The notes under the pieces are model-generated. The model saw only the letters and a program-made list of their open reading frames with translations, was not told the DNA's origin and ran no database searches. A DNA stretch of 64,000 bases from Bacillota bacterium (GTDB taxonomy: Bacteria; Pseudomonadota; Gammaproteobacteria; Natronospirales; REEB76). The DNA is taken from the NCBI GenBank assembly GCA_050261675.1, contig JBLNDO010000030.1:11424-75423 (forward strand). Direction: 5' to 3'. The position numbers and the translations under genes were made by a program. Below are positions 3,845 to 24,692 of the stretch, piece by piece. Numbering within the stretch: the stretch's first letter is position 1; each line of letters starts with the position of its first letter.

Positions 3845-3951
3845 GGACCGGCCGGCCACCCCCATGATCGCGACATATTGTGGTCATAAAATCCCGGTTA
3901 TACTTAACATATATTTCTGATTACATAATCGCTTTCCAGAGGGGTGAGGGT

Positions 3952-6246
3952 ATGACGATCTCGAAGATGGCGCCCGGCCGGGCGCTCCTGGTTTCCCTGT
4001 TGTCGCTCGCCGGCGCCTTCCACCTGGCCGCCGCGTCCGCCGCCACGGTGGCGAGCATCACGCTCGCCGTGCCCACCAAGACCCTGACCGCCGGCAACAC
4101 CGAGACCCTGAAGGCGACGGCCAAGGACTCCAGCGGCCACGTGATCAGCGGCGTGGCGTTCACTTGGACCTCCAGCAGCACCAAGGTGCTCACGATCTCG
4201 AGCGCGGGCCTCGCCAAGGGCCTGTTCCCGGGAAGCAGCACGGTCAAGGTCACGGGCGGCGGCAAGACCGCCAGCGTCACCCTCAGCGTGGTGGTGGCCA
4301 GCGTCACCCTCACCGCACCCAGCAAGACCCTGAAGGTGGGCAGCCACGAGACCCTGAAGGCGGTGGCCAAGAACTCCGCCGGCCAGGTGATCACCGGGGT
4401 GACGTTCAAGTGGACCTCCAGCCACAGCACCATCGTGAGTGTCGGTTCCACCGGCGTGGCGACGGCCCTGACCTCCGGCAGCGCGACCCTCAAGGCGTCG
4501 GTCGGCCCGAAGTCGGCGAGCGTCGTCATCACCGTGCCTCCCCACGTCGCGGGCATCGCCGCCAAGGGCAGCGCCATCGCCGGGGCCACCGTCACACTGG
4601 TGGACAAGAACGGCGCGACGATCTCGACCGTCACCGGGAGCGACGGCAGCTACAGCCTGGACACCACCGGCCTCACGCCGCCCTTCATGGTGTCCGTGCA
4701 GGTGGATCCCAAGACCGTGCTCTACAGCGTCAGCGACACCGCGAACCCTGGCATGGTCATCAACGTGACGCCCCTGACGGACCTCATCATCCGCTCCTGG
4801 TACAGCGTGCAGGGCCTGGATGTGGCCACGGCCTTCGCGGCCCCGGTCACCGACCCGCCGCCCTCCCCGACCGACGTGCAGATCATCAGCAACGTGGTGG
4901 TGCAGGTCACCGCCCTGTGGCTGCAGCAGAACGGCGTGGACACCACCAGCTTCAGCCCCATCAGCACGGCCTTCACGGCGAACGGCACCGGCGCGGACGC
5001 GGTGCTGGACGACACCACGGTGGACACGGGCACCGGCGCCATCACCATCAGCGCCGGCACCGTCAGCCAAAGCTCGACCGTGACCTACGACACGGGCACC
5101 AGCTCCATGAACGTGGCCACCACCACCACCGACAGCAGCACCAGCACGACCGACAGCAGCGTGCAGGGCACGGTGGTCGCGACCAGCAGCGATGCGCAGA
5201 CGGCGCTCACTGCGATCACCACCACGCTCAACTCCTTCGCCAGCACGGTGAATACGAAAGGTAGCGCTCTCGCGGCCAGCGACGTCAAACCTTTCTTGGA
5301 TACCGGCTTGCTGAACGAAGGTTTGGATCAGGACCTGTTCGCGGACAACATCGCCGATAACTTCAACGGCACACAGACGGGCGGCACGCCCGTGAGCGTC
5401 TCGTTCCAGGTGCTGAATATCCAGACGCTCGATACCGTCAACGGCCTCGCCGACGTGAACTTCATCATGACCGAGACCGCGGGCAACCAGACCCAGACCC
5501 AGACCGACGAGTTCTTCTTCAAGGACCAGGGCAATGGTACCTGGCTCTTCTACGGCGACAATCGGCCCGCCAAGCTCAGCGTCGCCGCCGAGGTGCGCAC
5601 CAACCAGGGCACGAATAACGCCGCGAACGGGCCCGACATCAACCTCGACGTCCGTCCGCTCACGGGCCTCTACTCGGGCATCACCGCGAACGGCGGCCCC
5701 ATCAGCAATCAAGCCTTCACCCAGCAGGGCACCGAGGATGACGTCTATATCCCGGATCCGGCCGTCCCGGCCACCACCGTGACCGTGACGCGGGACGTCT
5801 TCTTCTACAACACCGGGGTGTTGGGAAGCCTGCCCTCTCCCGGCACCAGCCTGACCATCACCCTGACGCCCGTCTCCGGTCCGGCGCAGCCCTACACGGT
5901 GCTGACCAACGCCGTCACCAACGAGGGCATCTCCATCACGAGCCCCACCGGCTCCACCCTGGCCACGGCCACCTTGGGCACGCCGCTGCACGTGGTTTGG
6001 ACCCTGCCGAAGACCTTCGCCGTGGCGGAAGTGAAATTGGAAGGCTTCGCGGAAACCGACCCGGGCCAGAACGACAACATCCAATGCAACGCTCCCAAGC
6101 CGGTGCTCTCCAACACGGCCACCTCGGGCGACATCACGATACCCACCACCTGCGGCGGCAAGTCCGTCCTGGGCGCGATCCTCAACGTGAACGTGATCGG
6201 CGTGAACGGCGAGCGGGAGATCATCGACTACGAATTCCAGAACTGA
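3952..6246 (+). CDS. large secreted protein with two Big_2 Ig-like domains and a carboxypeptidase-regulatory-like domain
   Basis: ATG 3952 with RBS ggtgaggg and signal peptide '...LAGAFHLAAASA'. Two ~80-aa tandem repeats ('ITLAVPTKTLTAGNTETLKATAKDSSGHVISGV.FTWTSS') are followed by 'ATVTLVDKNGATISTVTGSDGSYSL' and a Thr/Ser-rich C-terminal 500 aa. Confidence 0.75.
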   Translation: MTISKMAPGRALLVSLLSLAGAFHLAAASAATVASITLAVPTKTLTAGNTETLKATAKDSSGHVISGVAFTWTSSSTKVLTISSAGLAKGLFPGSSTVKVTGGGKTASVTLSVVVASVTLTAPSKTLKVGSHETLKAVAKNSAGQVITGVTFKWTSSHSTIVSVGSTGVATALTSGSATLKASVGPKSASVVITVPPHVAGIAAKGSAIAGATVTLVDKNGATISTVTGSDGSYSLDTTGLTPPFMVSVQVDPKTVLYSVSDTANPGMVINVTPLTDLIIRSWYSVQGLDVATAFAAPVTDPPPSPTDVQIISNVVVQVTALWLQQNGVDTTSFSPISTAFTANGTGADAVLDDTTVDTGTGAITISAGTVSQSSTVTYDTGTSSMNVATTTTDSSTSTTDSSVQGTVVATSSDAQTALTAITTTLNSFASTVNTKGSALAASDVKPFLDTGLLNEGLDQDLFADNIADNFNGTQTGGTPVSVSFQVLNIQTLDTVNGLADVNFIMTETAGNQTQTQTDEFFFKDQGNGTWLFYGDNRPAKLSVAAEVRTNQGTNNAANGPDINLDVRPLTGLYSGITANGGPISNQAFTQQGTEDDVYIPDPAVPATTVTVTRDVFFYNTGVLGSLPSPGTSLTITLTPVSGPAQPYTVLTNAVTNEGISITSPTGSTLATATLGTPLHVVWTLPKTFAVAEVKLEGFAETDPGQNDNIQCNAPKPVLSNTATSGDITIPTTCGGKSVLGAILNVNVIGVNGEREIIDYEFQN

Positions 6247-6272
6247 CGATCGCTTCGCTCATCGCTCAAAAC

Positions 6273-6300
6273 AAAACCGCCCCGAAAGGGGCGGTTTTTT
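6273..6300. terminator. bidirectional rho-independent terminator between convergent genes
   Basis: aaaa-ccgcccc-gaaa-ggggcgg-tttttt. It lies between the stop at 6246 (+) and the stop at 6299-6301 (-). Confidence 0.8.
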
Positions 6301-6814
6301 ATGAGGATTTACACGCCTGGATGGCCGCAGCGATGCCGCGCAGGAGCGCCTCGGGCGAGGGCGGGCAGCCGGGCACTTCCACGTCCACCGGGATCACGTC
6401 CGCGACGCGGCCGCGCAGGGCGTAGCTCGGGCAGAAGATGCCCTCGCCCCTGCCGCAGGCGCCCACGGCCACCACCAGGCGCGGCTCGGGCGTGGCCTCG
6501 TAGACGCGCTTCAGGGCCGCTTCCATGTGCTTGGACACGGGCCCGGTGACCAGTAGCAGGTCCGCGTGGCGCGGGCTCGCCACGAACTTGATGCCCAATC
6601 CTTCCAGGTTGTAGTAGGGATTGGTGAGGGCGTGGATCTCGAGTTCGCAGCCGTTGCAGGAGCCGGCGTCCACGTGGCGGATGCAGAGCGCGCGGCCGAG
6701 CACGCCGAGGATGTCCGCGCCGAGCGCCTCGCGGCGGCGCCAGGCCTCCTCCGCCCGCGGCGCGGGTTCGGTGACGACGCCGATCCGGCCGATCTGCTTC
6801 AGGGTCTTGAGCAC
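6299..6814 (-). CDS. NuoB/HycG/HyfI-like small subunit (keeps all 4 Cys for one [4Fe-4S] cluster)
   Basis: 'GSCNGCELE', 'SPRHADLLLVTGPV', 'GACG' and 'PGCPP' motifs. GTG start 6814 with GGAGGG 4 nt upstream. Confidence 0.85.
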   Translation of the reverse strand: MLKTLKQIGRIGVVTEPAPRAEEAWRRREALGADILGVLGRALCIRHVDAGSCNGCELEIHALTNPYYNLEGLGIKFVASPRHADLLLVTGPVSKHMEAALKRVYEATPEPRLVVAVGACGRGEGIFCPSYALRGRVADVIPVDVEVPGCPPSPEALLRGIAAAIQACKSS

Positions 6815-6824
6815 GCGCCCTCCG

Positions 6825-8366
6825 CTACAGGTCCTGCCCGCTGTAGGACAGGTTGAAGGATTTGTTGATGAGCGGGAAATCCGGGACGATGTTGCCGAGC
6901 ACCGCGTGCTCGAGCACCGGCCAGTTCTGCCACGACGGGTCGTGGGGATGGCAGCGGCGGACGGTCTCGCCCTCGCCGCTCTCCAGCATCACGAGCACCG
7001 GCCCGCGCCAGCCCTCGATCCAGCCGACCCCCAGGCGCCCCGCCGGAGCGGGCGGCGGTTCGACGCGCGTCCCGCCCGCGGGCAGGTCTTCGAGCAGCCG
7101 CCGGCAGAGGCGCAGGGATTCCAAGAGCTCGTCGAAGCGCACGTCGACGCGGGCGGCCACGTCGCCCGCGAGGGCGCCGCACTGGCGGAGGTCCAGGCGG
7201 TCGTAGGGCGCCGTGGGATGGTCGGCGCGCAGGTCCCAGGACTGGCCGCTGGCCCGGCCGGCGAGGCCGATCAGCCCTAAGTCCCGGGCGAGCGCCGGCG
7301 CCACGCGACCGGCGCCCAGGAAGCGGTCCTGCAGGCCGGCGTGGTCGTCGTAGATGTCCCGCAGCGCGAGCACTTCTTTTTCCAGCGGCGGCAGCGCTTC
7401 CAGCAAGGCGCGGCGCTGGTCCTCCGCGAGATCGGAAGCCACGCCGCCCGGCACCACCGCGTCCATGGAATAGCGGGCGCCGAAGGCGCGGGCGTTCATG
7501 CGCAGCAGGTCTTCCTTCAGGCGCGAGAAATGGGCGAGGCCCACGGTGAAGCCGGCGTCGTTGCCGAGCGCCCCGAGGTCGCCGAGGTGGTTGGCGAGGC
7601 GCTCGCGTTCCAGCAGGAGCGCCCGCAGCCAGAGCGCGCGCGCGGGCGGGGCCGCGCCGGTGATGGCTTCCAGCGCCATGCAGTAGGCCCAGGAGAAGGC
7701 CACGGCGGAATCCCCGGAGACCCGCGACGCGAGGCGGTGGCCTTCCATGAGCGGCAGGGCCTCGAAGCGCTTCTCGATGCCCTTGTGCACGTAGCCGAGC
7801 CGCTCCTCGAGACGCAGCACCTTCTCGCCCACCACGGAGAAGCGGAAATGCCCGGGCTCGATGGTGCCGGCGTGCACCGGTCCCACGGCGATCTCGTGCA
7901 CGCCCTCCCCCGCCACGGCCACGAAGGGATAGTGCTCGTCCTTCACGGGTCCGGTCTCGCGGGGGGCGTCGCGCCGCAGGGGGTAATGGTCCAGGGGCCA
8001 GGCGGCGTGGCGCAGCCAGTCGCGGGTGTCGCCGCCGTAGGCGCAGAGCCCCAGGAGGTCGAAGGCCGCCCGCTGCATGCGTCCGGCGGCCGGGAAGATC
8101 TCCGCCAGGTTCGGATAGCCGGAGGTGGCGCCGCCGTCCAGCGCGTGCTCCAGGATCAGCAGGCCCTCCGCGTCCTGCAGCGCGACGCGCAGCAGGAAAC
8201 CGCCGCTCCGGTCGCGCTCGTCGGTGCCCCACAGGGCGTGCAGCAGGCCGCCGTTCTCGCGCACGGCGGCGCAGGCGGCGCGCAGCTCCGCCGCCTCGAC
8301 CCAGGCACGGCGCGCCGGCGCCGCCCCGGGCAGGGTCTCGTACGTGAGTTTGGGCATCTCGATCAC
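6825..8366 (-). CDS. HycE/HyfG/NuoCD-like large subunit homolog lacking the NiFe-binding cysteines
   Basis: 'GPVHAGTIEPGHFRF', 'LEERLGYVHKGIEK' and an N-terminal NuoC-like part. The RxCGxC position reads RVSGDS (codons 7707-7718). The C-terminal DPCxxC position reads NLSYSG (6837-6851). Confidence 0.85.
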   Translation of the reverse strand: MIEMPKLTYETLPGAAPARRAWVEAAELRAACAAVRENGGLLHALWGTDERDRSGGFLLRVALQDAEGLLILEHALDGGATSGYPNLAEIFPAAGRMQRAAFDLLGLCAYGGDTRDWLRHAAWPLDHYPLRRDAPRETGPVKDEHYPFVAVAGEGVHEIAVGPVHAGTIEPGHFRFSVVGEKVLRLEERLGYVHKGIEKRFEALPLMEGHRLASRVSGDSAVAFSWAYCMALEAITGAAPPARALWLRALLLERERLANHLGDLGALGNDAGFTVGLAHFSRLKEDLLRMNARAFGARYSMDAVVPGGVASDLAEDQRRALLEALPPLEKEVLALRDIYDDHAGLQDRFLGAGRVAPALARDLGLIGLAGRASGQSWDLRADHPTAPYDRLDLRQCGALAGDVAARVDVRFDELLESLRLCRRLLEDLPAGGTRVEPPPAPAGRLGVGWIEGWRGPVLVMLESGEGETVRRCHPHDPSWQNWPVLEHAVLGNIVPDFPLINKSFNLSYSGQDL

Positions 8367-8369
8367 GGC

Positions 8370-9821
8370 CTAGCCGATGAGCTTCGCCGCCTCGCGGAAC
8401 CATTCCGCGAGGTAGGGCGGCATCCACAGGCCCAGCATCAGGACGAGGGCCAGGTGCGTGAACACGGGGATGAGCGCCGGCGAGTGCGGCAGGCGCGGCA
8501 GGTGGGTTTCGCCGAACACCATGGCCTGCACGCGGGTGAAGATGGCGCCGAAGGCGACGCCGAGCGCCGTGAGCAGGATGGGCGTGGCCCAGGGGTGGTC
8601 GCGCATGGCGGTGATCAGGATCAGGAACTCGCTGGCGAACACGCCGAAGGGCGGCATGCCGAGGATAGCGAGGGTGCCGACCATGAGCCCCCAGCCCACG
8701 GTGGGGCTGACGGTGATGAGGCCGCGGATCTGGTCCATGACCTGGGTCTTGGCCTTCTGGGCGGCGTGGCCCACGGCGAAGAAGATGGCGGACTTGGTGA
8801 GGGAATGCACGGTCATGTGCAGGAGCGCGGCGAAATTCGCCACCGGCCCGCCCATGCCGAAGGCGAAGGTGGCGATGCCCATGTGCTCGATGGAGGAATA
8901 GGCGAACAGGCGCTTCACGTCCTTCTGCCGCCACAGCAGGAACGAGGCCAGCACCACCGAGAGCAGGCCGAAGCCCATCATGAGGCCTCCGGCCACGTGG
9001 GTCTGCACCGCGCCCTCCACCAGCACCTTGCAGCGCACCACGGCGTAGAGCGCGACGTTGAGCAGCAACCCGGAGAGCACCGCGGACACGGGCGTCGGGC
9101 CCTCGGCGTGGGCGTCCGGCAGCCAGTTGTGCAGGGGCGCCAAGCCCACCTTGGTGCCGTAACCCACCAGCAGGAACACGAAGGCGAGCGAGAGCACCGT
9201 GGGCTCGAGCTGGCCTTTTACCTGGTTCAGGTGGGTCCAGAGGAGCGCGGTGGTGCCGGAACTGCCGAGCAGCTTCTCGGCGGCGAAGTACAGCAGGATG
9301 GTGCCGAACAGGGCCTGGGCGATGCCGACACCGCAGAGCACGAAATACTTCCACGCCGCCTCGATGGAGGCCGGCGTGCGGTAGAGCGACACCAGGAGCA
9401 CCGTGGCGAGCGTCGCCGCCTCCAGCGCCACCCACAGGAGTCCCATGTTGTTGGTGGTGAGCGCCAAGAGCATGGTGAACATGAAGAGCTGGAACATGCT
9501 GTGGTAGAGCCGGAGGCGCCGCGGGTTCACCCGGCCGTGGTGCGCCTCGATGCGCATGTAGGGCCGCGAGAACAGCGTGGTGGTGAAGCCCACCAGCGCC
9601 GTCAAGGCCACCAGGAACACGTTGAACGGGTCCATGAAGAACTGCTCGTTCAGGGCGAGCATCGGCCCGCCGGCGATCACCTTCCAGGTGAGCCAGACGG
9701 CGGCGGCGAAGGTGCCGGCGCCCACGGCCACGTTGGCCTCCGGCGCCCAGCGGCGCTCGCCGATGATCGCCAGGAGAAGGCTCCCGGAGAGCGGCAGGGC
9801 GAGCAGCACGAGTATCTCCAC
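8370..9821 (-). CDS. HyfF/NuoN(M)-like antiporter-type membrane subunit
   Basis: 483 aa, polytopic. 'WVALEAATLATVLLV', 'AWKYFVLCGVG', 'GLAPLHNWLPDAHAEGPTPVSA' and 'KRLFAYSSIEHMG' are Mrp/NuoLMN-family motifs. GTG start with AAGGAGGA upstream. Confidence 0.85.
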   Translation of the reverse strand: MEILVLLALPLSGSLLLAIIGERRWAPEANVAVGAGTFAAAVWLTWKVIAGGPMLALNEQFFMDPFNVFLVALTALVGFTTTLFSRPYMRIEAHHGRVNPRRLRLYHSMFQLFMFTMLLALTTNNMGLLWVALEAATLATVLLVSLYRTPASIEAAWKYFVLCGVGIAQALFGTILLYFAAEKLLGSSGTTALLWTHLNQVKGQLEPTVLSLAFVFLLVGYGTKVGLAPLHNWLPDAHAEGPTPVSAVLSGLLLNVALYAVVRCKVLVEGAVQTHVAGGLMMGFGLLSVVLASFLLWRQKDVKRLFAYSSIEHMGIATFAFGMGGPVANFAALLHMTVHSLTKSAIFFAVGHAAQKAKTQVMDQIRGLITVSPTVGWGLMVGTLAILGMPPFGVFASEFLILITAMRDHPWATPILLTALGVAFGAIFTRVQAMVFGETHLPRLPHSPALIPVFTHLALVLMLGLWMPPYLAEWFREAAKLIG

Positions 9822-9822
9822 C

Positions 9823-10482
9823 TCAGTCCTCCTTGAGCTTTTCCATGTGGTGCAGGTCGAGGCTGTCGAACTGCTCCCGGATCTGGAAGAAGAAGATGCC
9901 GAGGATCAGCACGCCCACCAGCACGTCCAGCGCCACGCCGAGCTCCACCACCATGGGCATGCCGTAGGTGGTGCTGGTGGCGGCGAAGAACAGGCCGTTC
10001 TCCATGGCGAGGAAGCCGAGCACCTGGGTGATGGCCTTGCGGCGGGTGATCATCATAAGGAAGGAGAGCAGCACCACCGCGAGCGCGATGCCGAGGGTGC
10101 TGCGGGTCACCGTGTGGCCGAGCTCGGAGATGGGCTGGGCGAGCGAGAAGCAGAAGATCACCAGCACGAGCCCGGCGAGCATGATGGTGGGGGCGTTGAT
10201 GATGGTCTCGCTCTCCCAGCGCGCCCCGAGGCGGGCGATGAGGCGGTGCATGATGAACGGCAGGGCGATGACCTTGAGCAGCAGCGTCAGCGCCGCGGAG
10301 AAGAACAGGTGGTACTGGCCGGTGGACACCATCACCACGGTGATGGAGACGAATAGGGCCGCGCCCTGCAGGGCGTACAGGGTCACGAGGGTGAGCACCC
10401 TCCGCTGCGCCAGCATGGCGAAGGACAGCAGCAGCAGCAGCGCCGCGCAAAGGTCGATGAGCTGGGAGGCGAAGCCGGCCAC
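9823..10482 (-). CDS. HyfE/NuoK-like membrane subunit
   Basis: GTG 10482 lies just after the upstream stop (10485). The 219-aa hydrophobic product has 'GFLAMENGLFFAA' typical of HyfE/HycP-like proteins. The remainder of ORF 9823..11361 is a 5' artefact. Confidence 0.75.
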   Translation of the reverse strand: MAGFASQLIDLCAALLLLLSFAMLAQRRVLTLVTLYALQGAALFVSITVVMVSTGQYHLFFSAALTLLLKVIALPFIMHRLIARLGARWESETIINAPTIMLAGLVLVIFCFSLAQPISELGHTVTRSTLGIALAVVLLSFLMMITRRKAITQVLGFLAMENGLFFAATSTTYGMPMVVELGVALDVLVGVLILGIFFFQIREQFDSLDLHHMEKLKED

Positions 10483-10484
10483 GG

Positions 10485-11435
10485 TCAGCTCCCCAGGAGC
10501 AGGTGCACCAGGAGCCCCAGCACCGCCAGCAGGAAGGCGGTGGCGAGGAACTCCGGGGCCCGGAAGATGCGCATCTTGGCGTTCAGGGTCTCGACGAGCG
10601 CGAGACCCGCGCCCGCCGCGGCGAGTTTCACGGTGGTCACGGGGACGGCGAGCAGGAGCCCCAGGTTGTCGCCGGTGTCGGCGGCGAGGCCCCAGGGCAG
10701 GAACAGGGCCAGGCCGATGCAGGTGTAGTTGAAGAGCTTGAGCGCCACGGACCACTCGATGAGCGCGAGATGCCGCGCCGAATACTCGAGGACGGTGGCC
10801 TCGTGGATCATGGTGAGCTCGAGGTGCGTCGCCGGATTGTCCACCGGGATGCGGGCGTTCTCGGCCAAAAGCACCATGAGGAAGGCGATGCCGGCGAAGG
10901 CCAGGCTGGGATAGAGCGCGAGTTCCCGGTGTGCCAGCACGTCCACGGTGGTGGGCAGCGAGGTGCTGTGGGAAATCAGCGAGGCGGTGAAGAACACCAT
11001 GAGCAGCGCGGGCTCGGCGAGGAAGCCCACCAGCATCTCGCGGCGCGCGCCCAGGGAGCCGAAGGCGGTGCCGATGTCCATGGCGGCGAGCGCGAGGGCG
11101 ACCCGCGCCGTGGCGAACAGGCCCACGAGGGCGATGGCGTCCGCCGCCACGGCGAACGGCAGGCCGGTCCAGAGCGTGGGGATGATGGCGGCGGCGAGGC
11201 CCATGGCCGCGAACTGCACGTAGGGGACGAGGCGGAACAGCGGCGAGGCGCCCTCGGCGATGACCGCGTCCTTGTGGAACAGCTTGCGCAGCAGGCGGTA
11301 GGGCTGCAGGAGCCCGGGACCGCTCTTGTTCTGCAGCCAGGCGCGGCACTGGTTCACCCAACCCATGAGCAGGGGCGCCGCCGCCACCGCCAGGAGGATC
11401 TCGACGCCTTGGGCAACGAGGCGCGCGGCGCTCAC
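10485..11435 (-). CDS. HyfC/HycD/NuoH-like membrane subunit
   Basis: GTG 11435 overlaps the upstream stop (GTGA). The 316-aa product has 'RAWLQNKSGPGLLQPYRLLRKLF' and 'ENARIPVDNPATHLELTMIHE' (NuoH/HycD signatures). Confidence 0.85.
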   Translation of the reverse strand: MSAARLVAQGVEILLAVAAAPLLMGWVNQCRAWLQNKSGPGLLQPYRLLRKLFHKDAVIAEGASPLFRLVPYVQFAAMGLAAAIIPTLWTGLPFAVAADAIALVGLFATARVALALAAMDIGTAFGSLGARREMLVGFLAEPALLMVFFTASLISHSTSLPTTVDVLAHRELALYPSLAFAGIAFLMVLLAENARIPVDNPATHLELTMIHEATVLEYSARHLALIEWSVALKLFNYTCIGLALFLPWGLAADTGDNLGLLLAVPVTTVKLAAAGAGLALVETLNAKMRIFRAPEFLATAFLLAVLGLLVHLLLGS

Positions 11436-13435
11436 AGCACGAACACCAGGAGCGCCACCAGGGTGGCGAAGCTGAACAGGAGGTACACGCCGATGCGCCC
11501 CTGCTGCACCAGGCCCGCCACCCGGGAGCCCGCCACGACCGCCCCGCCCACCGGCAGGTACAGCCAGTGCCAGAGGCGGTCTTCCACGCGCACGTGGTAG
11601 CGCGGGTTGGCGTCGAAGGCCGTGGGCAGCTCGCGCTGCATGCGATAGAAGGGCTCGAAGATCTGGCGGATGGGCTGGCCGAAGCCCTCGGCGGTGTCCT
11701 GCATGCGCGGCGTGAGCCAGGGGAAGCCGCAGGCCCAGGGCGGCGCCTTGCGCACGCGTCCGTGGTAGAAGCCGCGCACCAGCAGGACCACCAGCACCAC
11801 CAGCGCCACGGTGCCGAGCAGGAACACGGCGGGACTGTAGGACGCCCGCTCGGCCGACATGGGCGCGAGCAGCCACCACTGCTGCAGCCCGCCTCCCAGG
11901 CCCGCGCCCAGGAGTTCCTGGCTCACGCCGTCCAGGAGCGACAGCACGTGCACCGGAAAGAGCCCGAGGAGCACGCAGCCCGCCGCGAGCCAAAGCAGCG
12001 CCACCCGCTCCCGCCGGCCGCAGTCATGGGCCTTGGCGAGCTTGGGCTCGCGGGGTTGGCCGAGGAAGATGATGCCGTAGAACTTCACCATGACGTAGGC
12101 GGCGAGCGCCGCCACCAGGGCCAGCGCCGCGGCGCCGATGGGCAGCAGCATGTTGATGAACTGGTGCGGCAGTTCCGGCGTGAACAGGAAGGATTGCAGC
12201 AGCAGCCACTCGGACACGAAGCCGTTCAAGGGCGGCAGCCCGGCGATGGCGAGGGTGCCGACGAGGGCGAGCCAGGCGACCCAGGGCATGCGGTGGATGA
12301 GTCCGCCGAGCCTTCCCAGGCTGCGCTCGCGGGTGGAGTGCAGCACAGAGCCGGTGGCGAGGAACAGCAGGCTCTTGAAGAACGCGTGGTTCAAGGCGTG
12401 GTAGAGCGTGGCCGCGAGAGCCAGGGCCGCGAACCGGGGCATGCCGAAGGCGTGGAACAGGATGGTGAGGCCCAGCCCCAGAAACAGGATGCCGATGTTC
12501 TCGATGGAGGAATAGGCGAGCAGGCGCTTCATGTCGGTCTGCACCGCCGCGAAGATCACGCCGTAGAACGCGGTGAAGAGGCCTAAGCCGAGCGCCACCA
12601 GGCCCCACCACCAGAGCTGCGCATGCAGAAGGTCGAACGTGACGCGCAGCACGCCGTAAATGGCGGTCTTCAGCATCACGCCGCTCATGAGCGCGGACAC
12701 GGGGGACGGCGCCGCCGGGTGCGCCTCCGGCAGCCACACGTGCAGCGGCACGAGGCCCGCCTTGGCGCCGAAGCCGAACAGCGCCAGGAAGAACGCGACG
12801 CTCGCCCAGATCGGCGAGAGTGTGGCGGCACGCATGGCCTCGAAGGTGAACTGCCAGCTTCCGCCCTGCAGCACGCCGAAGCACAGGAGGATGCCGATGG
12901 CGCCGACGTGGGCGATGACGAGGTAGATGAACCCGGCGCGGCGGATCTCCGGCAGCCGGTGCTGGCTCGTGACCAGGAAATAGGACGAGAGCGCCATGGT
13001 CTCCCAGGCGACCATGAAGAGGTAGGCGTCGTCCGCCATCAGCACCACGGCCATGCTGGCGAGGAACACGTGGTACTGCAGGCCGAGGAGCCCGGGGGCC
13101 GCGCCCTCGCCGCTGCGGAAGTAGCCCGAGGCGAACACCGAGATGCCGCCGGAGACGAAGCCGAGCAGCATGAGGAAGAAGCAGGACAGGCCGTCCACGC
13201 GCACGTGGAACGGCAATTCCGAGAGCCCGAGCGGCAGCACCAGGGCCTCGGGGGGCTGCGAGAGCTGCAGAAACGCGGCGATGCCGAGCGCAAAACCGGC
13301 GACGCCGCCCAGCGGGAACAGGATGCGCCCCACCCAGGCGATGCTGCGCGCGCCCAGGAGGCCGAGGACGGCGATCGCGACCCACGCCACGGGGATCGAG
13401 AGGATCCCGATGAGAGTCGGATTCGCGGACAACAT
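11432..13435 (-). CDS. HyfB/NuoL-like antiporter-type membrane subunit
   Basis: 667 aa. 'FMVAWETMALSSYFLV', 'GLVPLHVWLPEAHPAAPSPVSALMSG' and 'KRLLAYSSIENIG'. ATG 13435 with GAGGTGG upstream. Confidence 0.85.
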   Translation of the reverse strand: MLSANPTLIGILSIPVAWVAIAVLGLLGARSIAWVGRILFPLGGVAGFALGIAAFLQLSQPPEALVLPLGLSELPFHVRVDGLSCFFLMLLGFVSGGISVFASGYFRSGEGAAPGLLGLQYHVFLASMAVVLMADDAYLFMVAWETMALSSYFLVTSQHRLPEIRRAGFIYLVIAHVGAIGILLCFGVLQGGSWQFTFEAMRAATLSPIWASVAFFLALFGFGAKAGLVPLHVWLPEAHPAAPSPVSALMSGVMLKTAIYGVLRVTFDLLHAQLWWWGLVALGLGLFTAFYGVIFAAVQTDMKRLLAYSSIENIGILFLGLGLTILFHAFGMPRFAALALAATLYHALNHAFFKSLLFLATGSVLHSTRERSLGRLGGLIHRMPWVAWLALVGTLAIAGLPPLNGFVSEWLLLQSFLFTPELPHQFINMLLPIGAAALALVAALAAYVMVKFYGIIFLGQPREPKLAKAHDCGRRERVALLWLAAGCVLLGLFPVHVLSLLDGVSQELLGAGLGGGLQQWWLLAPMSAERASYSPAVFLLGTVALVVLVVLLVRGFYHGRVRKAPPWACGFPWLTPRMQDTAEGFGQPIRQIFEPFYRMQRELPTAFDANPRYHVRVEDRLWHWLYLPVGGAVVAGSRVAGLVQQGRIGVYLLFSFATLVALLVFVL

Positions 13436-13491
13436 CAGACAGCGCCACCTCGGCGCGCGGAGAACGCGCGCGGCTTGACAGGCCCGTGAAG

Positions 13492-13512
13492 TATTATCAT
13501 CCTATGATAATA
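13492..13512. promoter_or_regulatory. inverted repeat (9-bp arms, 3-bp spacer) in the divergent hyf-like / RHH intergenic region
   Basis: tattatcat-cct-atgataata is the only AT-rich patch in the 97-bp intergenic region. A TTGACA hexamer lies at 13475-13480. Confidence 0.5.
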
Positions 13513-13532
13513 GTATGTAAATCAGGTCGCCC

Positions 13533-13730
13533 ATGCCCCGGGAAAGCCGCACCGCCCGCCTGACCATCCTCGTCGATCCGCGCAAGAAGGCGGTGTTCGA
13601 GGCCCTGTGCGCGGACGTGGACCAGACGCCGAGCCAGGTGGTCAGGAAGTTGATCCGGGATTACATCGAGTACCGGACGGGGAAGGCTTGGGATCCGGAC
13701 GCGGTTTCAACGCGGAAAGCGAAGCGTTGA
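13533..13730 (+). CDS. orphan ribbon-helix-helix (CopG/Arc-MetJ-type) DNA-binding protein
   Basis: 65 aa. 'ARLTILVDPRKKAVFEALCADVDQTPSQVVRKLIRDYI' follows the strand-helix-helix pattern. No toxin gene follows; a terminator comes directly after. Confidence 0.7.
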   Translation: MPRESRTARLTILVDPRKKAVFEALCADVDQTPSQVVRKLIRDYIEYRTGKAWDPDAVSTRKAKR

Positions 13731-13736
13731 ACAAAT

Positions 13737-13764
13737 AAAAAGCCGCCTGCTCAGGCGGCTTTTT
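13737..13764. terminator. bidirectional rho-independent terminator
   Basis: aaaa-agccgcc-tgctca-ggcggct-tttt between convergent genes (stop at 13730 on +, stop at 13785 on -). Confidence 0.75.
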
Positions 13765-13784
13765 GCTTTCGGCGAAGAATTATA

Positions 13785-13889
13785 TCAACCGCGTGCCGCC
13801 CTTTTGGCAGCCTTCTCGGCGCGCTTCTCTTTCAGGGTCTTCTGCGGCTTCTTCCGGTCTTCCTTCTTGCGGTCCATACCCTTGCTCAT
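13785..13889 (-). CDS. small Lys/Arg-rich protein (34 aa), not in the ORF track
   Basis: Hand translation gives MSKGMDRKKEDRKKPQKTLKEKRAEKAAKRAARG*, with GAGGAG 6 nt upstream of ATG 13889. It is followed by the terminator at 13737-13764. Confidence 0.45.
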   Translation of the reverse strand: MSKGMDRKKEDRKKPQKTLKEKRAEKAAKRAARG

Positions 13890-13939
13890 GGCGGTCTCCT
13901 CTGGATGGCACTGGATGGGGGAATAATCTTACCAGCCCC

Positions 13940-14710
13940 TCACGGCGGCGGCGCGATCTCCACGGTCCAGAAATCCCCGGCGAGTTTCGGGTCCGTGAGG
14001 TAGCCATAGGGGAGGTAGAAATAGCCGCCCTGCCCCCACTTCGGACCGTAGGAATTCCTGGCGACGAAGCGCTTCCCGGCATCCTCGTAGCCCACGGCCA
14101 TGACGGCGTGATTGCCGAGCAGCTTCTCCCCCGCTTTCGGGATGGGCGGCATGTCCGCCTGCCGGGCCTCGGGGGTGTCGAAGCTCTCGTAGACGGCGAA
14201 GGCGAAGATGAAGGGCCGGCCGGACGCGAGGCAGGCCTGGAGATGGGCGAGGTCTTGCGCCAAGCGCGCGTAATGGACCTGGCGGTATTTCACCGCAGCC
14301 TTATAACAGCGGGCCGGAGGTTCCACGTCCACCTGGGCGGGGTCGTAGGGCCAGAGGTCCTCGGGACAGTCGCCCTGCTTCGCCAGGGACTTGATGGCTT
14401 CCCGCAGGGGAGCGCCGCCGTCCCGACTCTCGGTGCCGAGCATCCTGCGTTCGTTGTAGTAGATGAAGAGCCGCGAGGGGACGAAGTCCGGCTTGAGCTT
14501 CAGGCGCCGGCGCTCGAACTGGATGGCGCCCGCGGCGGCATTGGCGGTGCAGCTCTGCAGGGGGCGCTGGTCGTAGGCCTGGGGACAGAGGGAGCGGAGG
14601 TCTACGGATGCCGGGCGCTTCTTGAGGAACTCGGCCGGCGGTGCGTAGGCGTGGTCGCGCGCGTCGGGTTTGTCCCGGATACAGCCAAAGTGACGGGCGG
14701 GCTCAGTCAT
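13940..14710 (-). CDS. papain-like C1-family cysteine peptidase, no signal peptide
   Basis: Catalytic-type motifs 'LQSCTANAAA' (Cys), 'GNHAVMAVGY' (His) and 'ARNSYGPKWGQGGYFY' (Asn/Trp). The N-terminal 'DKPDARDHAY' is typical of bacterial C1 peptidases. Confidence 0.8.
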   Translation of the reverse strand: MTEPARHFGCIRDKPDARDHAYAPPAEFLKKRPASVDLRSLCPQAYDQRPLQSCTANAAAGAIQFERRRLKLKPDFVPSRLFIYYNERRMLGTESRDGGAPLREAIKSLAKQGDCPEDLWPYDPAQVDVEPPARCYKAAVKYRQVHYARLAQDLAHLQACLASGRPFIFAFAVYESFDTPEARQADMPPIPKAGEKLLGNHAVMAVGYEDAGKRFVARNSYGPKWGQGGYFYLPYGYLTDPKLAGDFWTVEIAPPP

Positions 14711-14740
14711 GCGCCCATTATAAGGAGAGGCAGGAAGACC

Positions 14741-15928
14741 TTAGATGCCTAATTGCTGTGGGTTGACGCCGTAAGCGCCGTTCTGCAGACAGCGATCGAT
14801 CCAGACACGGCCGCTGTCGGACCAGGCGTTGTCGAACATCATGTCCACCACCGCCGGGTAGGTGAGCGGCTTCTTGGCTTCGTCCAGCACCAGCGCGATG
14901 CGGGGACGGAGCTTCTGCGGGTTCTGGGCCAGCACCACGCCGACCGCGCCGGTGTTGAGTTCGATGACCGAGCCCGTCGGGAAGGCGCCCACCATCTGCA
15001 TGAATTTCTCCACCGCCTCCGTCTGGAACAGCTTGCCGCGCGCGCCGAAGATGAAACGGATCGCCTCGTGGGGCGAGCGTTCGCCGGCGTAGGGCCGGAA
15101 GCTCACCAGCGCGTCGTAGGTGTCCACGATGCCGGCGATCACGGCGTAGAGGGGTATGGACGTGCCCTTCAGCCCGGCGTGGTAGCCGCTGCCGTCGAAG
15201 CGCTCATGGTGGTGCTTGACGAGTTCCATGATGCGCGGGGTGATGCCGTCCATGCCGCGGAGGATCTCGAGACTCTGGCCCACGTGGCCGTGCACCGCCC
15301 GGGTCTCGGCCTCGTTCAGCGGGCCGGGGCGCAGGAGCAGGGTCAGGGGCAGTTGGGTCTTGCCCACGTCGAAAAGCATGCAGCCCAGGCCGACTTCGTG
15401 GATCTCTTCCTTCTCGAGGCCGAGATGGCGCGCGAACGCCAGGCCCCAGATGGAGGTATTGAGGGCGTGGCTGAAGATGTAGGAGTCATGCTGCTTCATG
15501 CGCGTGAGCCAGATGAGCGCATTGGGGTTGCGCAGCATGCTCTCGAGCATGGGGGTGATGGTCTTCCGGGCCAGGTCCACGTCGAGGCGGCCGCTCTGCA
15601 GCATCTGGGTGAAGATGGCCTTGGCGGCGGCGCTGGCGTCGCGGTGGATCTCCTTGGCGCGGACGATCTCCTTCTCGACCGTCTGCGTCACGGGATAGCG
15701 GTCGGGGACGTGGGGCCGGGTGCGGGGGGTCGTGTCTTCGATCCGCTCCGCGTCCACGAACACGTACTGGCAGACGCGCTGCAGTTCTTCGAGGGTCTCC
15801 TGGTTGCGGATGAAGAAACCCTGGTACATGAAGCGCGTGTCGGTCCACGGCCGATCCAGCCGATCGACGTACATGCCGACCTTCAGATCGCCGACGGCAA
15901 GCTTCCTGAGCTTCGAGGTACCTGACAC
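14741..15928 (-). CDS. HD-GYP domain phosphodiesterase with DUF3391-like N-terminus
   Basis: 'HHERFDGSGYHAGL' (HD-GYP), 'MLFDVGK' and 'KVGMYVDRLDRPW'. GTG 15928 has AAGGAG 5 nt upstream; the ORF-track 5' extension to 16096 is Arg/Pro/Gly-rich and was rejected. Confidence 0.8.
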   Translation of the reverse strand: MSGTSKLRKLAVGDLKVGMYVDRLDRPWTDTRFMYQGFFIRNQETLEELQRVCQYVFVDAERIEDTTPRTRPHVPDRYPVTQTVEKEIVRAKEIHRDASAAAKAIFTQMLQSGRLDVDLARKTITPMLESMLRNPNALIWLTRMKQHDSYIFSHALNTSIWGLAFARHLGLEKEEIHEVGLGCMLFDVGKTQLPLTLLLRPGPLNEAETRAVHGHVGQSLEILRGMDGITPRIMELVKHHHERFDGSGYHAGLKGTSIPLYAVIAGIVDTYDALVSFRPYAGERSPHEAIRFIFGARGKLFQTEAVEKFMQMVGAFPTGSVIELNTGAVGVVLAQNPQKLRPRIALVLDEAKKPLTYPAVVDMMFDNAWSDSGRVWIDRCLQNGAYGVNPQQLGI

Positions 15929-16191
15929 CCGCGCTCCTTCGGCACGCACCTCCCTCTCAGGTGCGTCCCACCCGATGGATGCCGGCCCCCCTCGCCGGTC
16001 CAAGCGAACAGGAGTCTGGACCCCTCCGGCTCGCCCCGGCAAGGGCGGACAGGCAGGTAAACACCGGTACTTTGGGTAGGAAACACCTGACGGCACGGCC
16101 GCCCGCGGGAATTTCGCCGCAAATTCAGCGGATTACCGGAAACACCTGGAAAGCTCGTCCGCTGTCACATTCAGCGGAACCGGGCGGCCGC

Positions 16192-17908: not shown

Positions 17909-18560
17909 CTACTGCCCGACCATGACGAAGGCGCCCCAGTAGTACGGCAGGTCCTGGCTGTAACGCGCCTTCACCACCTCCCGCTCCTTGAGTTCCGCCT
18001 GCCTAAGCGCTTCGTGCTTCTCCATGCCGCCCAGCCAGTTGGCGTAGAAGAACTGCATCAGCTCCCGGGTCTCCTGGTCCGGCACGGACCACATGCTCAT
18101 GATCACCGCCTGGGCGCCCGCTTCCTGCAGGGCGCGGTTGAGCCCGAACACGCCCTCGCCGTTCTGGGAGCTGCCCAAGCCGGTGTCGCAGGCGGAGAGC
18201 ACCACGAGTTCGGTGCCTTCGAGGTCGAGCTGCTCCGCCTCGTAGGCGGTGAGCACGCCGTCATCCGCCCCCTCCGGCGACGGGTTGCCGGCGAGCGTGT
18301 TGTCCGCCCCGGCGAAATAGAGCCCGGAGCGCAGCATGGGATCTTCCACGAGATTCTTCTGGTCCGGCAGGAAGAAGCCGTGGGTCGCGATGTGCAGGAG
18401 GCGCGGATGGTGCACGGACTTGATGGCTTCTTCCAGGGCGAGGTCGCTTTGGTAGAGCCGCGCCTGCCACTGCTTGCGGCTGAGGAGAGCGTCGATGCCC
18501 GCCACCTCCTCCGCCGTGCCGGGCAACGGACAGAGGATGCCGGTGTCGGGCAGGGGGCAA
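17909..18560. repeat. high-identity paralogous segment (CHAT-domain 3' end), copy A
   Basis: By eye, about 9 in 10 nt match 21304-21960 over the first ~260 nt. Identity is lower but clear further in. The end point is approximate. Confidence 0.7.
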
Positions 18561-21277
18561 TGGGCCGCTTCGGCGCCGCGCGCGACCGGGATGCTGACTT
18601 GGGTGCGCGCCGCGAGCCGGGTGTCGTTCGTTCCGCCGCCGAGCTTCCCCACCGCGGCGAGGTAATCCGCCGCGGGGAGGTCGAACGAGGGGCCTCCCAT
18701 GAGGACGGCATCCTCGGACGTGGCGCCGGTGACGTGCCGCAGCACGTCCTTGGTGCTGGGGACGATGCGCAGGTCGTAGCGCTCCATGAGGAGCTTGCCG
18801 GCGGGGTCCGGCACGATGCCGAGCGAAGCCTGGTTGAATACGCCGTCCGGCGAGAGGTACACGCGTGTGGCGCCCTTGAGCGCGGGCTCCAACGGCGCCC
18901 AGTAGGCCTCGTAGAACGTGGTCTGGCCCGGAAGCGGGGCGGGGCCGGCCTTGCGCAGGCGCGCGGCGTAGTCCGCCACGGGATCGGACTCGAGGCCGGC
19001 GGCCTTGCCGATGACGATGAACTGCGGCTGGTCGCGGGTCTCGGGCGTCACCACCAGGGCCACGTAGTAGTTCTCGTGGGTGTCGAGCCAGCCCTCCATG
19101 TAGTGGAAGCGCACCACTTCCACCGCGGCCTCGCCGGGTTTGAGCGCATCGCGCACCTGTTGCCAGGTGACGCTCTGCAGCCGCTGGCCCTCGGCCACGG
19201 CGGCGGAGCGCTTGGCGAGCTGCCGCTCTAGGTCGTCGGTGTCCGCCTGCTGCTGTTGCACCTTGGCGAGCCACTGGTCGCGGTCCTGGCCGGGGTTGTT
19301 GAGCAGCGTGGCGAGCTTGGTCTTGCTGGCGCTGAGCTTGTCCAGGAGCGCGAGGGAATCGGGGTCGCCGCTGGAGGCGATCTTGGCCCGGAGCGCGGTG
19401 ATGGTGTTGCCCACGAAACCCTTCTGCCACAGGAGCACGTTGTACATCTTGCCGGCGAGCGCGGGGTCCTGCTCGTGGTATTTCAGGCAGAAACTGTAAT
19501 ACTCGGGGAACCGGTCGGCGATGGAATTGAGGAACTGCAAGCGGTCGCGCTCGTTCATGTAGACGAACTGGCTCTCGAGGTCGTGGTGCAGTTTCTCCAT
19601 GGACGCATCCAGCACCGGAGCCGCCGCCTTGCGGTCACCCATCTGGAACAACAGCATCGAGTACTTGAACTGGACGGTGATGGCCATGGCGCTCTGCTCG
19701 CCGTTGACCTTCATGACCACCGGCAGGGCGCGTTCGAAGAGCGGCCGGGCCTCGGCAAGTCGGTTGTGGAAGGCGTAGAACTCCCCCACATTCACCGATT
19801 GCTGGGCCGTATCGGTCTGGTCCGGACCCAGGGTCTTCATGTCCATGGCCATGGCATCCAGATAGAGTTTCTCCGCTTCCGCCGTGCGGTGTTCGTGGTC
19901 GTAGATGTCCGCCAGGATGTTCATCTGGTGGGCGACCTGGGGATGCACGGGCCCGAGCGTGCGCTGATCCATGGCGAGCGCCTTCTCCGCCAGGTCCTGC
20001 GCCTCCTTCCATTGGGACAGGTTGTTGTAGAGCACCGCCAGGTTGCTGAGCGCGGTGGCGGTATTCGGATGGTCCGGCGGATAGACCTTCTCGAAGATGG
20101 CGATGGTCTGCTGCATGAAGGGAATGGCGTCCTTGACCCGCCCCATCTCCCGGTACAGCACGGCCATGTTGTTGAGGTCGTAGCCGACCTGGATGTCGTC
20201 CTCGCCGCGCACCTTGCGGTCTATCTCCAGGGCGCGGCGGTAAAGCGATTCCGCCCGGTTGTAATCGCCGAACACCTCGTACATGTAGGCGATGCTGCCC
20301 TCCACCTGGCCGACGTTGGCGCTCATCTCGCCCTGGGTCTTGACGTAGACGTCGAGGGATTGCTGGTAATACGGCAGCGCCTTGTTGTAGAGACCCTGGT
20401 CGTCGTAGCTGCGCGCCACGTCGTTGAGCATGTTGGCCACGTCCGGGGTCTCCGGCCCCTGAGCCTCGCGCATGATCTGCAGCGCCCGCAGGAACAAGGG
20501 CTCCGCCTCCGCGGGATGCCCCTCGTTGAGGTCCACATTGCCGAGGTAGTCGATCGCGTAGGCGAGGGCCGGCGTCTGCGGCCTGCCGGGCTTATCCAGG
20601 ATGGCAAGCGCGCGGTTGAGCACCTTGCGCGCACCGGCGTTGTCGCCGTTCACCAGGAGCAAGAGACCCTGGCCGGTGAGGGTTTCCGCCAGGTCCTCCT
20701 GGTCCTTGCCCGGCGCCGTCTCCTGGATCGCCAGCGCACGCTGGTAATCCTGGCTCGCCGCGTCCATCTTGTTGAGGTTGTACTCCACCATGGCGAGGTC
20801 GCCGAGGGTGGCGGCCACCTCCGGGTCCGCCGGGCCCAGGAGCTTCTCCTGGGCAGCGAGCACGGCGGTCAGGTCCTTCTCCGCATCTTCGAACCGTCCC
20901 TGGCTCGACTCGGCCCGGGCGATGAGCCGCTGACCCATGGCCGCTTCGGCGCTCCCGGCACCGTGGCGCTTCTGTTCGAGATTGAGCGCCAGGCGGAAAT
21001 AGCTCTCCGCCTCGGGGTAGTTGCCCACGTCGAGCTCGGCCGCCGCCAGGTCGTTCAGGGCTTCGGTCATCTCCGCCGAATCCGCCGGAAGGGTCTTCTG
21101 GGCCGCGGCATATTCGTCTTTCGCCGCCGCGAGAGCGGGCACGAACTGGGCCTTATCCTCCAGGGCCTGGCGCTTGGCTTGCAGCGTCTTCCAGCCGGCC
21201 GGCGCGGGGGGCGCCGAGGCGCAGGCGGCGAGCGCGGCAAGAGCGAGCAGGACGGAAACCGGACGTGGGAGTTTCAT
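17909..21277 (-). CDS. lipoprotein TPR-repeat CHAT-domain (caspase-like) peptidase, paralog 2
   Basis: ATG 21277 with GGAGGGG RBS and signal plus lipobox 'LALAALAAC|A'. About 550 aa of TPR repeats precede a C-terminal CHAT domain with 'HIATHGFF' and 'VLSACDTGLG' (Cys codon 18188-18190). Confidence 0.85.
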   Translation of the reverse strand: MKLPRPVSVLLALAALAACASAPPAPAGWKTLQAKRQALEDKAQFVPALAAAKDEYAAAQKTLPADSAEMTEALNDLAAAELDVGNYPEAESYFRLALNLEQKRHGAGSAEAAMGQRLIARAESSQGRFEDAEKDLTAVLAAQEKLLGPADPEVAATLGDLAMVEYNLNKMDAASQDYQRALAIQETAPGKDQEDLAETLTGQGLLLLVNGDNAGARKVLNRALAILDKPGRPQTPALAYAIDYLGNVDLNEGHPAEAEPLFLRALQIMREAQGPETPDVANMLNDVARSYDDQGLYNKALPYYQQSLDVYVKTQGEMSANVGQVEGSIAYMYEVFGDYNRAESLYRRALEIDRKVRGEDDIQVGYDLNNMAVLYREMGRVKDAIPFMQQTIAIFEKVYPPDHPNTATALSNLAVLYNNLSQWKEAQDLAEKALAMDQRTLGPVHPQVAHQMNILADIYDHEHRTAEAEKLYLDAMAMDMKTLGPDQTDTAQQSVNVGEFYAFHNRLAEARPLFERALPVVMKVNGEQSAMAITVQFKYSMLLFQMGDRKAAAPVLDASMEKLHHDLESQFVYMNERDRLQFLNSIADRFPEYYSFCLKYHEQDPALAGKMYNVLLWQKGFVGNTITALRAKIASSGDPDSLALLDKLSASKTKLATLLNNPGQDRDQWLAKVQQQQADTDDLERQLAKRSAAVAEGQRLQSVTWQQVRDALKPGEAAVEVVRFHYMEGWLDTHENYYVALVVTPETRDQPQFIVIGKAAGLESDPVADYAARLRKAGPAPLPGQTTFYEAYWAPLEPALKGATRVYLSPDGVFNQASLGIVPDPAGKLLMERYDLRIVPSTKDVLRHVTGATSEDAVLMGGPSFDLPAADYLAAVGKLGGGTNDTRLAARTQVSIPVARGAEAAHCPLPDTGILCPLPGTAEEVAGIDALLSRKQWQARLYQSDLALEEAIKSVHHPRLLHIATHGFFLPDQKNLVEDPMLRSGLYFAGADNTLAGNPSPEGADDGVLTAYEAEQLDLEGTELVVLSACDTGLGSSQNGEGVFGLNRALQEAGAQAVIMSMWSVPDQETRELMQFFYANWLGGMEKHEALRQAELKEREVVKARYSQDLPYYWGAFVMVGQ

Positions 21278-21303
21278 GGACCCCTCCACAAAGCATCAAT
21301 TCA

Positions 21304-24675: not shown

Positions 24676-24692
24676 AACAAGCTACGCTGCGC

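Follow-up and report, generated by a model that had tools for sequence, protein, structure and literature searches.

Ehr complexes (Ehr standing for energy-converting hydrogenase-related), which were reportedly described by Coppi, stand evolutionarily between the group 4 hydrogenases and complex I. The hyfBCEFGI operon analyzed here lies in a window of 64,000 nucleotides (contig JBLNDO010000030.1 of assembly GCA_050261675.1, positions 11,424 to 75,423 of the forward strand) and is a member of this already described family, with a large subunit, HyfG, in which all four cysteine ligands of the NiFe center are replaced. The Ehr complex was also described by Marreiros et al. 2013, as related in the papers that cite that work. 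Such clusters are widespread, occurring in nitrifiers, iron and sulfur oxidizers, Acidobacteriota, and Cupriavidus. In Sulfobacillus, six syntenic genes include one for a large subunit without the RxCGxCxxxH and DPCxxCxxH/R motifs; the cluster was called "similar to Ehr," and its function was reported as unknown (PMC4378227). Likewise, the Ehr of Nitrospira falls near group 4f but has no CxxC motifs, is found in about half of Nitrospirales genomes, and has a function reported as unknown (PMC10284858, PMC12342949), while its expression in N. moscoviensis does not respond to H2 (PMC12342949). The large subunit of the Acidithiobacillus ferrooxidans hyfBCEFGI cluster was classed as non-hydrogenase by HydDB (PMC7735108), and "incomplete" is the word used for the hyf operon that the hyfBCEFGI genes of Cupriavidus metallidurans (Rmet_4666-4671) and Cupriavidus necator (H16_A2196-A2201) make up (PMC2864759). 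In Geobacter sulfurreducens, the EhrABCDLS subunits (GSU0739-45) are more abundant on formate (PMC7894505). A complex between formate dehydrogenase (FDH) and Ehr was hypothesized in Margulisbacteria (PMC6349859), and Rv0081-87 of M. tuberculosis has likewise been termed EHR (PMC6728331).

Our assignment of the window operon to the Ehr family rests on the published descriptions of hyfBCEFGI non-hydrogenase clusters (PMC7735108, PMC4378227). The operon encodes a group-4-like large subunit without both CxxC motifs, a NuoB-like small subunit with a full ligand set, and NuoH-like, HyfE-like, and Mrp/NuoL-type antiporter-like subunits in the order hyfBCEFGI. Like the Ehr complexes of Geobacter, Nitrospira, Sulfobacillus, Acidithiobacillus, and Cupriavidus, it has six genes, no CxxC NiFe motifs, and no assigned function; the window copy shows no essential difference from them and comes from an uncultured high-GC bacterium. 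Because the missing NiFe motifs are a defining trait of the Ehr family, described from 2005-2013 onward, the feature itself is not new. This copy brings no new principle, and what interest remains lies in the function of Ehr and in the conservation, quantified here, of the residues that replace the ligands.

HyfG is composed of a NuoC-like Complex1_30kDa domain (residues 22-136) and a NuoD-like Complex1_49kDa domain in Pfam, and its database copy (P0001) has 510 residues, with a start three codons later than that of the window open reading frame (ORF). When HyfG was searched with phmmer against all PDB chains, E. coli HycE (7z0s_E) was the top match (E = 6e-62), followed by Thermus thermophilus Nqo4, Pyrococcus furiosus MbhL, and many NDUFS2/NuoD chains. 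A likeness to HycE/HyfG had been drawn by eye in an earlier sequence-only reading of the window, and the formal HMMER alignment, with HycE as best match, bears it out; the landmarks GPVHAGTIEPGHFRF and LEERLGYVHKGIEK are both found in HyfG. The AlphaFold2 model of HyfG, for which the input alignment consisted of the query and 134 relatives, has a predicted local distance difference test score (pLDDT) of 94.8 and a predicted template modeling score (pTM) of 0.95, and residues 164-169, in the beta1-beta2 loop, are its only low-confidence or disordered stretch. In a Foldseek comparison with the PDB, HycE (7z0s_E) again ranked first, with a template modeling (TM) score of 0.94 and 31% identity, followed by E. 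coli NuoCD with TM scores of 0.81-0.89. No NCBIfam model reached its cut-off for the HyfG large subunit.

The HMMER alignment pairs the HyfG segment lasRVSGDSavafs with lsdRVCGICgfahs of HycE, and RVSGDSAVAF of HyfG stands opposite RVCGICGFAH in HycE and RMCGICSFSH in MbhL, so that HyfG does not carry the group 4 L1 motif RxCGxCxxxH. Similarly, sfNLSYSGq pairs with slDPCYSCt of HycE, and the L2 motif DPCxxCxx(H/R) is missing. Reading of the DNA gave TCC at 7716-7718 (S217), TCC at 7707-7709 (S220), TCC at 6846-6848 (S507), and GGG at 6837-6839 (G510). The two substituted boxes and their codons had been proposed from the sequence alone, and both stand, since alignment and DNA agree. The NiFe ligands are thus Ser, Ser, Ser, and Gly, and, as judged from the sequence, a canonical NiFe(CN)2CO center cannot be held. 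With the four ligands replaced, HyfG should neither make nor oxidize H2, and the earlier claim that the site does not activate H2 in the ordinary way is supported. That reading had also pointed to a missing C-terminal extension for endopeptidase processing. The stop codon (TAG, 6825-6827) does follow three codons after G510; however, this does not add evidence for the loss of NiFe, because all 16 of the nearest four-Cys relatives end in the same way (CxDR*). The absent extension characterizes this group 4 branch and is not a result of NiFe loss.

A word-indexed homologue search returned at least 8000 matches for HyfG. Among the matches listed, the closest 120 (63-100% identity) carry [RH][VIL]SGD[ST] and end in NLSY[SA]Gx[DL], with one Cys at position 217 in a few, and most of 150 distant representatives also show the ligand substitutions of HyfG. 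As the substitutions are common to both sets, they are not due to chance or sequencing error. HMMER, run exhaustively over 1.84 billion cluster representatives, gave 995 proteins at E <= 1e-30. Residue statistics were drawn from the query and 134 full-length relatives, down to 31% identity. By their ligand positions, 111 of these sequences have no Cys, 16 have all four, and eight have one, at the first ligand position (P0044, P0058, P0125, P0128, P0132, P0229, P0248, and P0253, reading CSSG, CSAG, or CASG). The single-Cys proteins are intermediate forms inside otherwise Cys-less clades. A crude neighbor-joining tree, for which the ligand columns were masked, put 14 of the 16 four-Cys sequences and one Cys-less sequence in one bipartition, an exact split that was recovered in none of 30 bootstraps.

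The replacement residues are themselves conserved. Across the 111 Cys-less sequences, which reach down to 33% identity, position 217 is Ser in 92% and position 507 is Ser in 96%, while position 510 is Gly in 99%; all three are Cys in the 16 four-Cys relatives, which served as the NiFe comparison. Position 218 is Gly in 96%, position 219 is Asp in 97% (Val or Ala in the NiFe relatives), and position 220 is Ser, Thr, Glu, or Asn. Beyond the ligand boxes, position 270 is Asp in 95% (Gly in 13 of the 16 NiFe relatives), positions 476-477 are Asp in 86% and Pro in 89% (Ser-Ala), and position 513 is Leu (Arg), so that D270, D476-P477, and L513 switch in step with the loss of Cys. The loop GPVHAGxIEPGHFRF, E170, H173, and the RG-motif Arg454 are common to both groups. 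Since the replacement residues are kept down to about 33% identity, the substituted pocket is under strong purifying selection, which suggests that it was repurposed and not decayed.

Cys ligands at shifted positions would have refuted the sequence-only reading. No conserved replacement Cys exists among the 111 Cys-less relatives, in which Cys exceeds 62% in no alignment column and is absent from the lists of invariant and >=90% conserved positions; shifted cysteine ligands are therefore rejected. HyfG might nonetheless be a cryptic hydrogenase or another metal enzyme that uses shifted or non-Cys ligands, given that the fold is intact, that the equivalents of Glu170 and Arg454 are kept, and that a few relatives retain one Cys at position 217. 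We regard this as scarcely credible. Apart from the missing Cys column, the HydDB call for the A. ferrooxidans large subunit (PMC7735108) and the unresponsiveness of N. moscoviensis Ehr expression to H2 (PMC12342949) argue against it, and the ORFs scanned across the 64-kb window include no hyp, hycI, or Ni-uptake genes.

In the small subunit HyfI, C53 and C56 (GSCNGCE), C120 (GAC), and C150 (GCPP) match the cluster cysteines of MbhJ and HycG, and the core of HyfI aligns along its whole length to MbhJ (6cfw_J, E = 2.5e-41) and HycG (7z0s_G). Each of the four is present in all 76 sequences compared, and HyfI retains its single [4Fe-4S] cluster. The N2 cluster of complex I is held by a tandem-Cys arrangement, and the HMMER alignment of HyfI with NDUFS7 begins only at C56. 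The earlier description of a complete N2-type [4Fe-4S] site holds for its completeness and its position; however, its ligands follow the hydrogenase-type CxxC arrangement that MbhJ and HycG also have, and not the tandem Cys of NuoB.

Taken together, we consider it likely that the complex is an Ehr-type non-hydrogenase that acts as a redox-linked ion-translocating machine. The likelihoods that we attach to this and to other readings are separate judgments and do not form a partition. HyfG and HyfI make up its peripheral arm, and the membrane arm, which is complete, comprises the NuoH-like HyfC, HyfE, and the two antiporter-like subunits HyfB and HyfF. In the mechanism that we propose, a carrier encoded elsewhere would exchange electrons directly with the HyfI cluster, and ferredoxin or flavodoxin would be the most likely one because no NuoI/HycF-like relay is encoded. 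A non-H2 reaction or a change of charge would then take place, or be sensed, in the rebuilt pocket, rich in carboxylates, where HyfG, HyfI, and HyfC meet, involving S217, D219, S220, D270, D476, S507, and D512 together with the retained E170, H173, and R454. The flexible beta1-beta2 loop, together with HyfC, could relay this change to HyfB and HyfF.

Several observations weigh against this proposal. The operon and the scanned ORFs of the 64-kb window contain no HycB, HycF/NuoI, FdhF, or NuoEFG, and the 10-kb flanks of 80 related loci show no conserved electron donor, acceptor, or relay, so that redox turnover is deduced only from the conserved cluster ligands. The gained Asp residues are placed near the old metal site by homology, and no Ehr complex has had its substrate defined by experiment (PMC12342949). 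Moreover, conservation is higher in the membrane subunits than in the peripheral arm, with a median identity of 78% for HyfF, the most conserved subunit, and 70% for HyfC versus 63% for HyfG and 65% for HyfI, which would fit a mainly transport function as well. The complex might then be a redox-independent transporter that serves essentially as a cation/proton antiporter of the Mrp type, or in CO2 hydration or pH homeostasis, and whose peripheral arm, Fe-S cluster included, has only a structural or regulatory role. Besides the missing electron-input genes and the conserved membrane arm, the three conserved Asp residues gained in the pocket could suit a cation or proton site, and one copy in A. 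caldus adjoins a beta-carbonic anhydrase (PMC3826726). However, the Fe-S ligands are invariant, HyfG retains the hydrogenase Glu/His loop and the RG-motif R454, and no carbonic anhydrase is among the recurring neighbor families of the 80 relatives, which makes such a transporter unlikely in our judgment.

Electrons could also come from formate, if an FDH encoded elsewhere docked on HyfG/HyfI as in formate hydrogenlyase and the acceptor were other than protons. The greater abundance of Ehr subunits in formate-grown Geobacter (PMC7894505) is consistent with this arrangement, as is the co-occurrence with FDH suggested for Margulisbacteria, Nitrospira, and Acidithiobacillus (PMC6349859, PMC5596200, PMC3826726). 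However, no FDH, HycB, or HycF homologue occurs among the ORFs scanned in the window or among the recurring neighbor families of the 80 related loci, and we find the formate link quite improbable for this operon.

The sequence-only reading had called the HyfG/HyfI pair complex-I-like, with a quinone or other pocket, rather than H2-activating. The lack of canonical NiFe ligation agrees with that description, whereas the sequence lends little to a quinone pocket. In an alignment with T. thermophilus Nqo4 that runs without gaps through residues 27-129 and agrees with the known numbering, HMMER placed His38 opposite Ile169 and Tyr87 opposite Gly218. Both quinone ligands of the NuoD type, the residues that the same reading had singled out for a check, are therefore missing from HyfG. 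Only Nqo4 Asp139 has an equivalent, D270, which is the sole complex-I-like trait and was gained in the Cys-less clade. The curated NuoD and NuoB models of NCBIfam stayed under their cut-offs, at 188 bits versus 360 for the best NuoD model and 115.8 versus 116 for the NuoB subfamily model. HyfG and HyfI thus appear complex-I-like only in the general sense of the superfamily.

As a sub-case of the redox-linked ion machine, the complex could be a complex-I-like quinone reductase, in which the HyfI cluster reduces a quinone bound between HyfG, HyfI, and HyfC and so drives ion pumping. A NuoH-like subunit is present together with the NuoB/NuoD-like pair, the quinone-site Asp139 is matched by D270 in 95% of Cys-less sequences where 13 of 16 NiFe relatives have Gly, and a flexible beta1-beta2 loop, like that of complex I, is predicted. 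However, besides the replaced His38 and Tyr87, this loop is hydrogenase-type, being nearly identical in the true NiFe relatives; the HyfI motif is CxxC and not tandem Cys; an Asp also occupies the D270 position in MbhL, a true hydrogenase; and HycE, not NuoD, is the best match in both sequence and fold. We therefore see quinone reduction as a possible but doubtful specialization of the redox-linked machine.

It is also conceivable that the old NiFe cavity has been rebuilt as a conserved hydroxyl/carboxylate site, either for another metal or cation or for proton loading gated by the [4Fe-4S] cluster, which would make Ehr a new redox-gated ion machine. The site may be formed by S217, D219, S/T220, S507, and the gained D270 and D476, beside the retained E170, H173, R454, and D512. 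We put this forward tentatively and rate it as rather unlikely. If it were true, Ehr would be an ion machine gated by redox state, or driven by ferredoxin or by the proton motive force with reverse electron flow, and neither a quinone nor an H2 enzyme. The signature SGD[ST] / NLSYSG / D270 / D476, quantified here, supplies concrete targets for mutagenesis.

Among other known systems, E. coli formate hydrogenlyase (Hyc, 7z0s) gives the top sequence and fold match for HyfG and the best matches for HyfI and HyfC as well. E. coli hydrogenase-4 (Hyf) is matched in that HyfB and HyfF score above the equivalog cut-offs of NCBIfam for Hyf subunits B and F. However, the window operon differs from both in having neither the four NiFe Cys nor the HyfG C-terminal extension, and in encoding no HycB/HyfA, HycF/HyfH, HyfD, HyfJ, FdhF, or HycI. 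The nearest true [NiFe] group 4 relatives, assigned to group 4f in the literature, share about 38-41% identity with HyfG. Like HyfG, they are of equal length, have the beta1-beta2 loop and the INKSFxL...Y...D C-terminal frame, and end three residues past the last ligand position; RxCGxCxxxH and ELCYxCxDR are retained in them, whereas SGD[ST], NLSY[SA]GxDL, D270, and D476-P477 mark the Cys-less clade. The Q-module of complex I (NuoB, NuoCD, and NuoH) shares with the window complex a homologous fold, the absence of a NiFe site, the Asp139 equivalent, and the flexible loop, but it has the His38/Tyr87 ligands and the tandem-Cys cluster and works with NuoI and NuoEFG, none of which the window operon has. 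The Pyrococcus MBS/Mbx complex (6u8y), which reduces sulfane sulfur, is likewise derived from group 4 and has given up H2 chemistry while keeping the Fe-S chain and the antiporter-like modules. MBS retains a NuoI-like subunit and some of the Cys. Its subunit H is the best PDB match of the window HyfF, whereas MbsL matches HyfG far more weakly (E = 2.7e-21) than HycE does.

A genome scan with one genome per species yielded more than 566 loci, of which the best 80 were examined. The six-gene order is kept in every one of these 80 that is long enough to show it, and they span Natronospirales, other Gammaproteobacteria, Burkholderiales/Casimicrobiaceae, Gallionellaceae, Sulfuricella, Nitrosomonadales, and Acidobacteriota; the closest relatives of the cluster are in Natronospirales, with 72-74% identity. 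When the ORFs of the 10-kb flanks were clustered, the surroundings were not conserved. The recurring flank genes encode methionyl-tRNA synthetase (MetRS) and ApbC/Mrp-NUBPL (the usual metG-mrp pair), an ArsR-family regulator, Hsp20, UvrA, SSB, MnmA, and dCTP deaminase, with PntA in a few. All of them are lineage-specific housekeeping or regulatory neighbors, and a redox partner conserved by synteny was rejected on this ground. Twelve related loci have the ArsR-family (HTH_5) regulator just upstream of the cluster, for example about 200 nt 5' of hyfB in L023, L031, and L039, which are Acidobacteriota/Burkholderiales loci, and 11 have an Hsp20 gene just downstream of hyfI; neither is in this window. 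The names given to HyfG homologues are inconsistent and include "NADH-quinone oxidoreductase subunit C," "hydrogenase large subunit," and "Ni,Fe-hydrogenase III large subunit/component G." Such routine misnaming of Ehr homologues inflates predictions of H2 metabolism in metagenomes.

The six genes lie on one strand in the order hyfB-C-E-F-G-I and abut or overlap, the GTG start of hyfC overlapping the hyfB stop (GTGA). A promoter-like site precedes hyfB and is the only such site in 5900-14100, where 0.3 would be expected from shuffles, and a strong terminator-like hairpin further upstream delimits the transcription unit on that side (Table 1). From the gene overlaps, the promoter-like site, the upstream terminator, and the subunit families, it follows that hyfB-C-E-F-G-I is one operon. 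No credible riboswitch or leader RNA was found upstream of hyfB in the window at E <= 1, and six relatives gave none at the gathering score, only two tRNAs.

Table 1. Coordinates of the hyf operon, its ligand motifs, and its flanking signals in the window
Feature	Position	Strand	Evidence and remarks
hyfB/ehrA-like antiporter-like subunit, NuoL-type, 667 aa	11432..13435	-	Proton_antipo_M 6.5e-53; NF005086 "hydrogenase 4 subunit B" 895 bits vs cut-off 667
hyfC-like NuoH/HycD-type membrane subunit, 316 aa	10485..11435	-	Pfam NADHdh; HycD 7z0s_D E = 1.4e-37
hyfE-like small membrane subunit, 219 aa	9823..10482	-	NF008556 "hydrogenase 4 membrane subunit" 94 bits, under cut-off 136
hyfF-like antiporter-like subunit, NuoM/N-type, 483 aa	8370..9821	-	NF005045 852 bits vs cut-off 543; MBS 6u8y_H E = 4e-33
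hyfG/ehrL-like large subunit, NuoC-NuoD fusion without all four NiFe cysteines, 513 aa	6825..8366	-	Pfam, phmmer, AlphaFold2
beta1-beta2 loop GPVHAGTIEPGHFRF (aa 162-176)	7839..7883	-	near-invariant in Cys-less and NiFe relatives
Former L1 motif RVSGDS (aa 215-220), replaces RxCGxC	7707..7724	-	HMMER alignment, codons
Former L2 motif NLSYSG (aa 505-510), replaces DPCxxC	6837..6854	-	HMMER alignment, codons; protein end QDL*
hyfI/ehrS-like small subunit, NuoB-type, 171 aa	6299..6814	-	Pfam Oxidored_q6; GTG start, GGAGGG ahead
HyfI [4Fe-4S] ligand codons	C53 6656-6658, C56 6647-6649, C120 6455-6457, C150 6365-6367	-	alignment
Sigma-70-like promoter TTTACA-17-GATAAT, ~58 nt upstream of hyfB start	13493..13521	-	only such site in 5900-14100
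Terminator-like hairpin, 12-bp stem and T run, after upstream papain-like protease gene	13737..13764	-	separates the operon from the genes upstream

Beyond the terminator, a gene for a papain-family cysteine protease (13940-14740, minus strand) lies directly upstream of the operon and is itself preceded by one for an HD-GYP-type HD_5 and DUF3391 protein (14741-16132, minus strand). On the other side, a plus-strand gene (3880-6246) with a GC content at third codon positions (GC3) of 0.92 converges on the end of hyfI; it encodes a 788-residue protein with weak Big_2/Ig-like domains, and its antisense frames are also open across long stretches.

Further into the window, two tandem proteins with TPR and CHAT domains, of about 1125 residues, are encoded at 17909-21295 and 21304-24681, followed by a DUF928 protein (24693-25571), a CHASE2-adenylate/guanylate cyclase (25502-27412), and a beta-propeller protein (27462-28508), all on the minus strand. 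By its domain content, the region 17909-28508 looks like a CHAT/CHASE2/DUF928 signaling cluster. The AsmA, MlaE, and SLT genes (50331-52376, 57747-58571, and 41424-42065, respectively) indicate a diderm cell envelope. These genes, together with the Natronospirales (Gammaproteobacteria) placement of the genomes nearest in the hyf cluster, cast doubt on the NCBI label "Bacillota bacterium" carried by the protein MGE5624629.1 of the source metagenome-assembled genome, which is probably a case of mis-binning or misclassification. Finally, an EgtB-like gene (DinB_2 and FGE-sulfatase) adjoins an EgtD-like gene (histidine-specific methyltransferase) at 46012-48337 on the plus strand, and the two are likely an ergothioneine biosynthesis pair.

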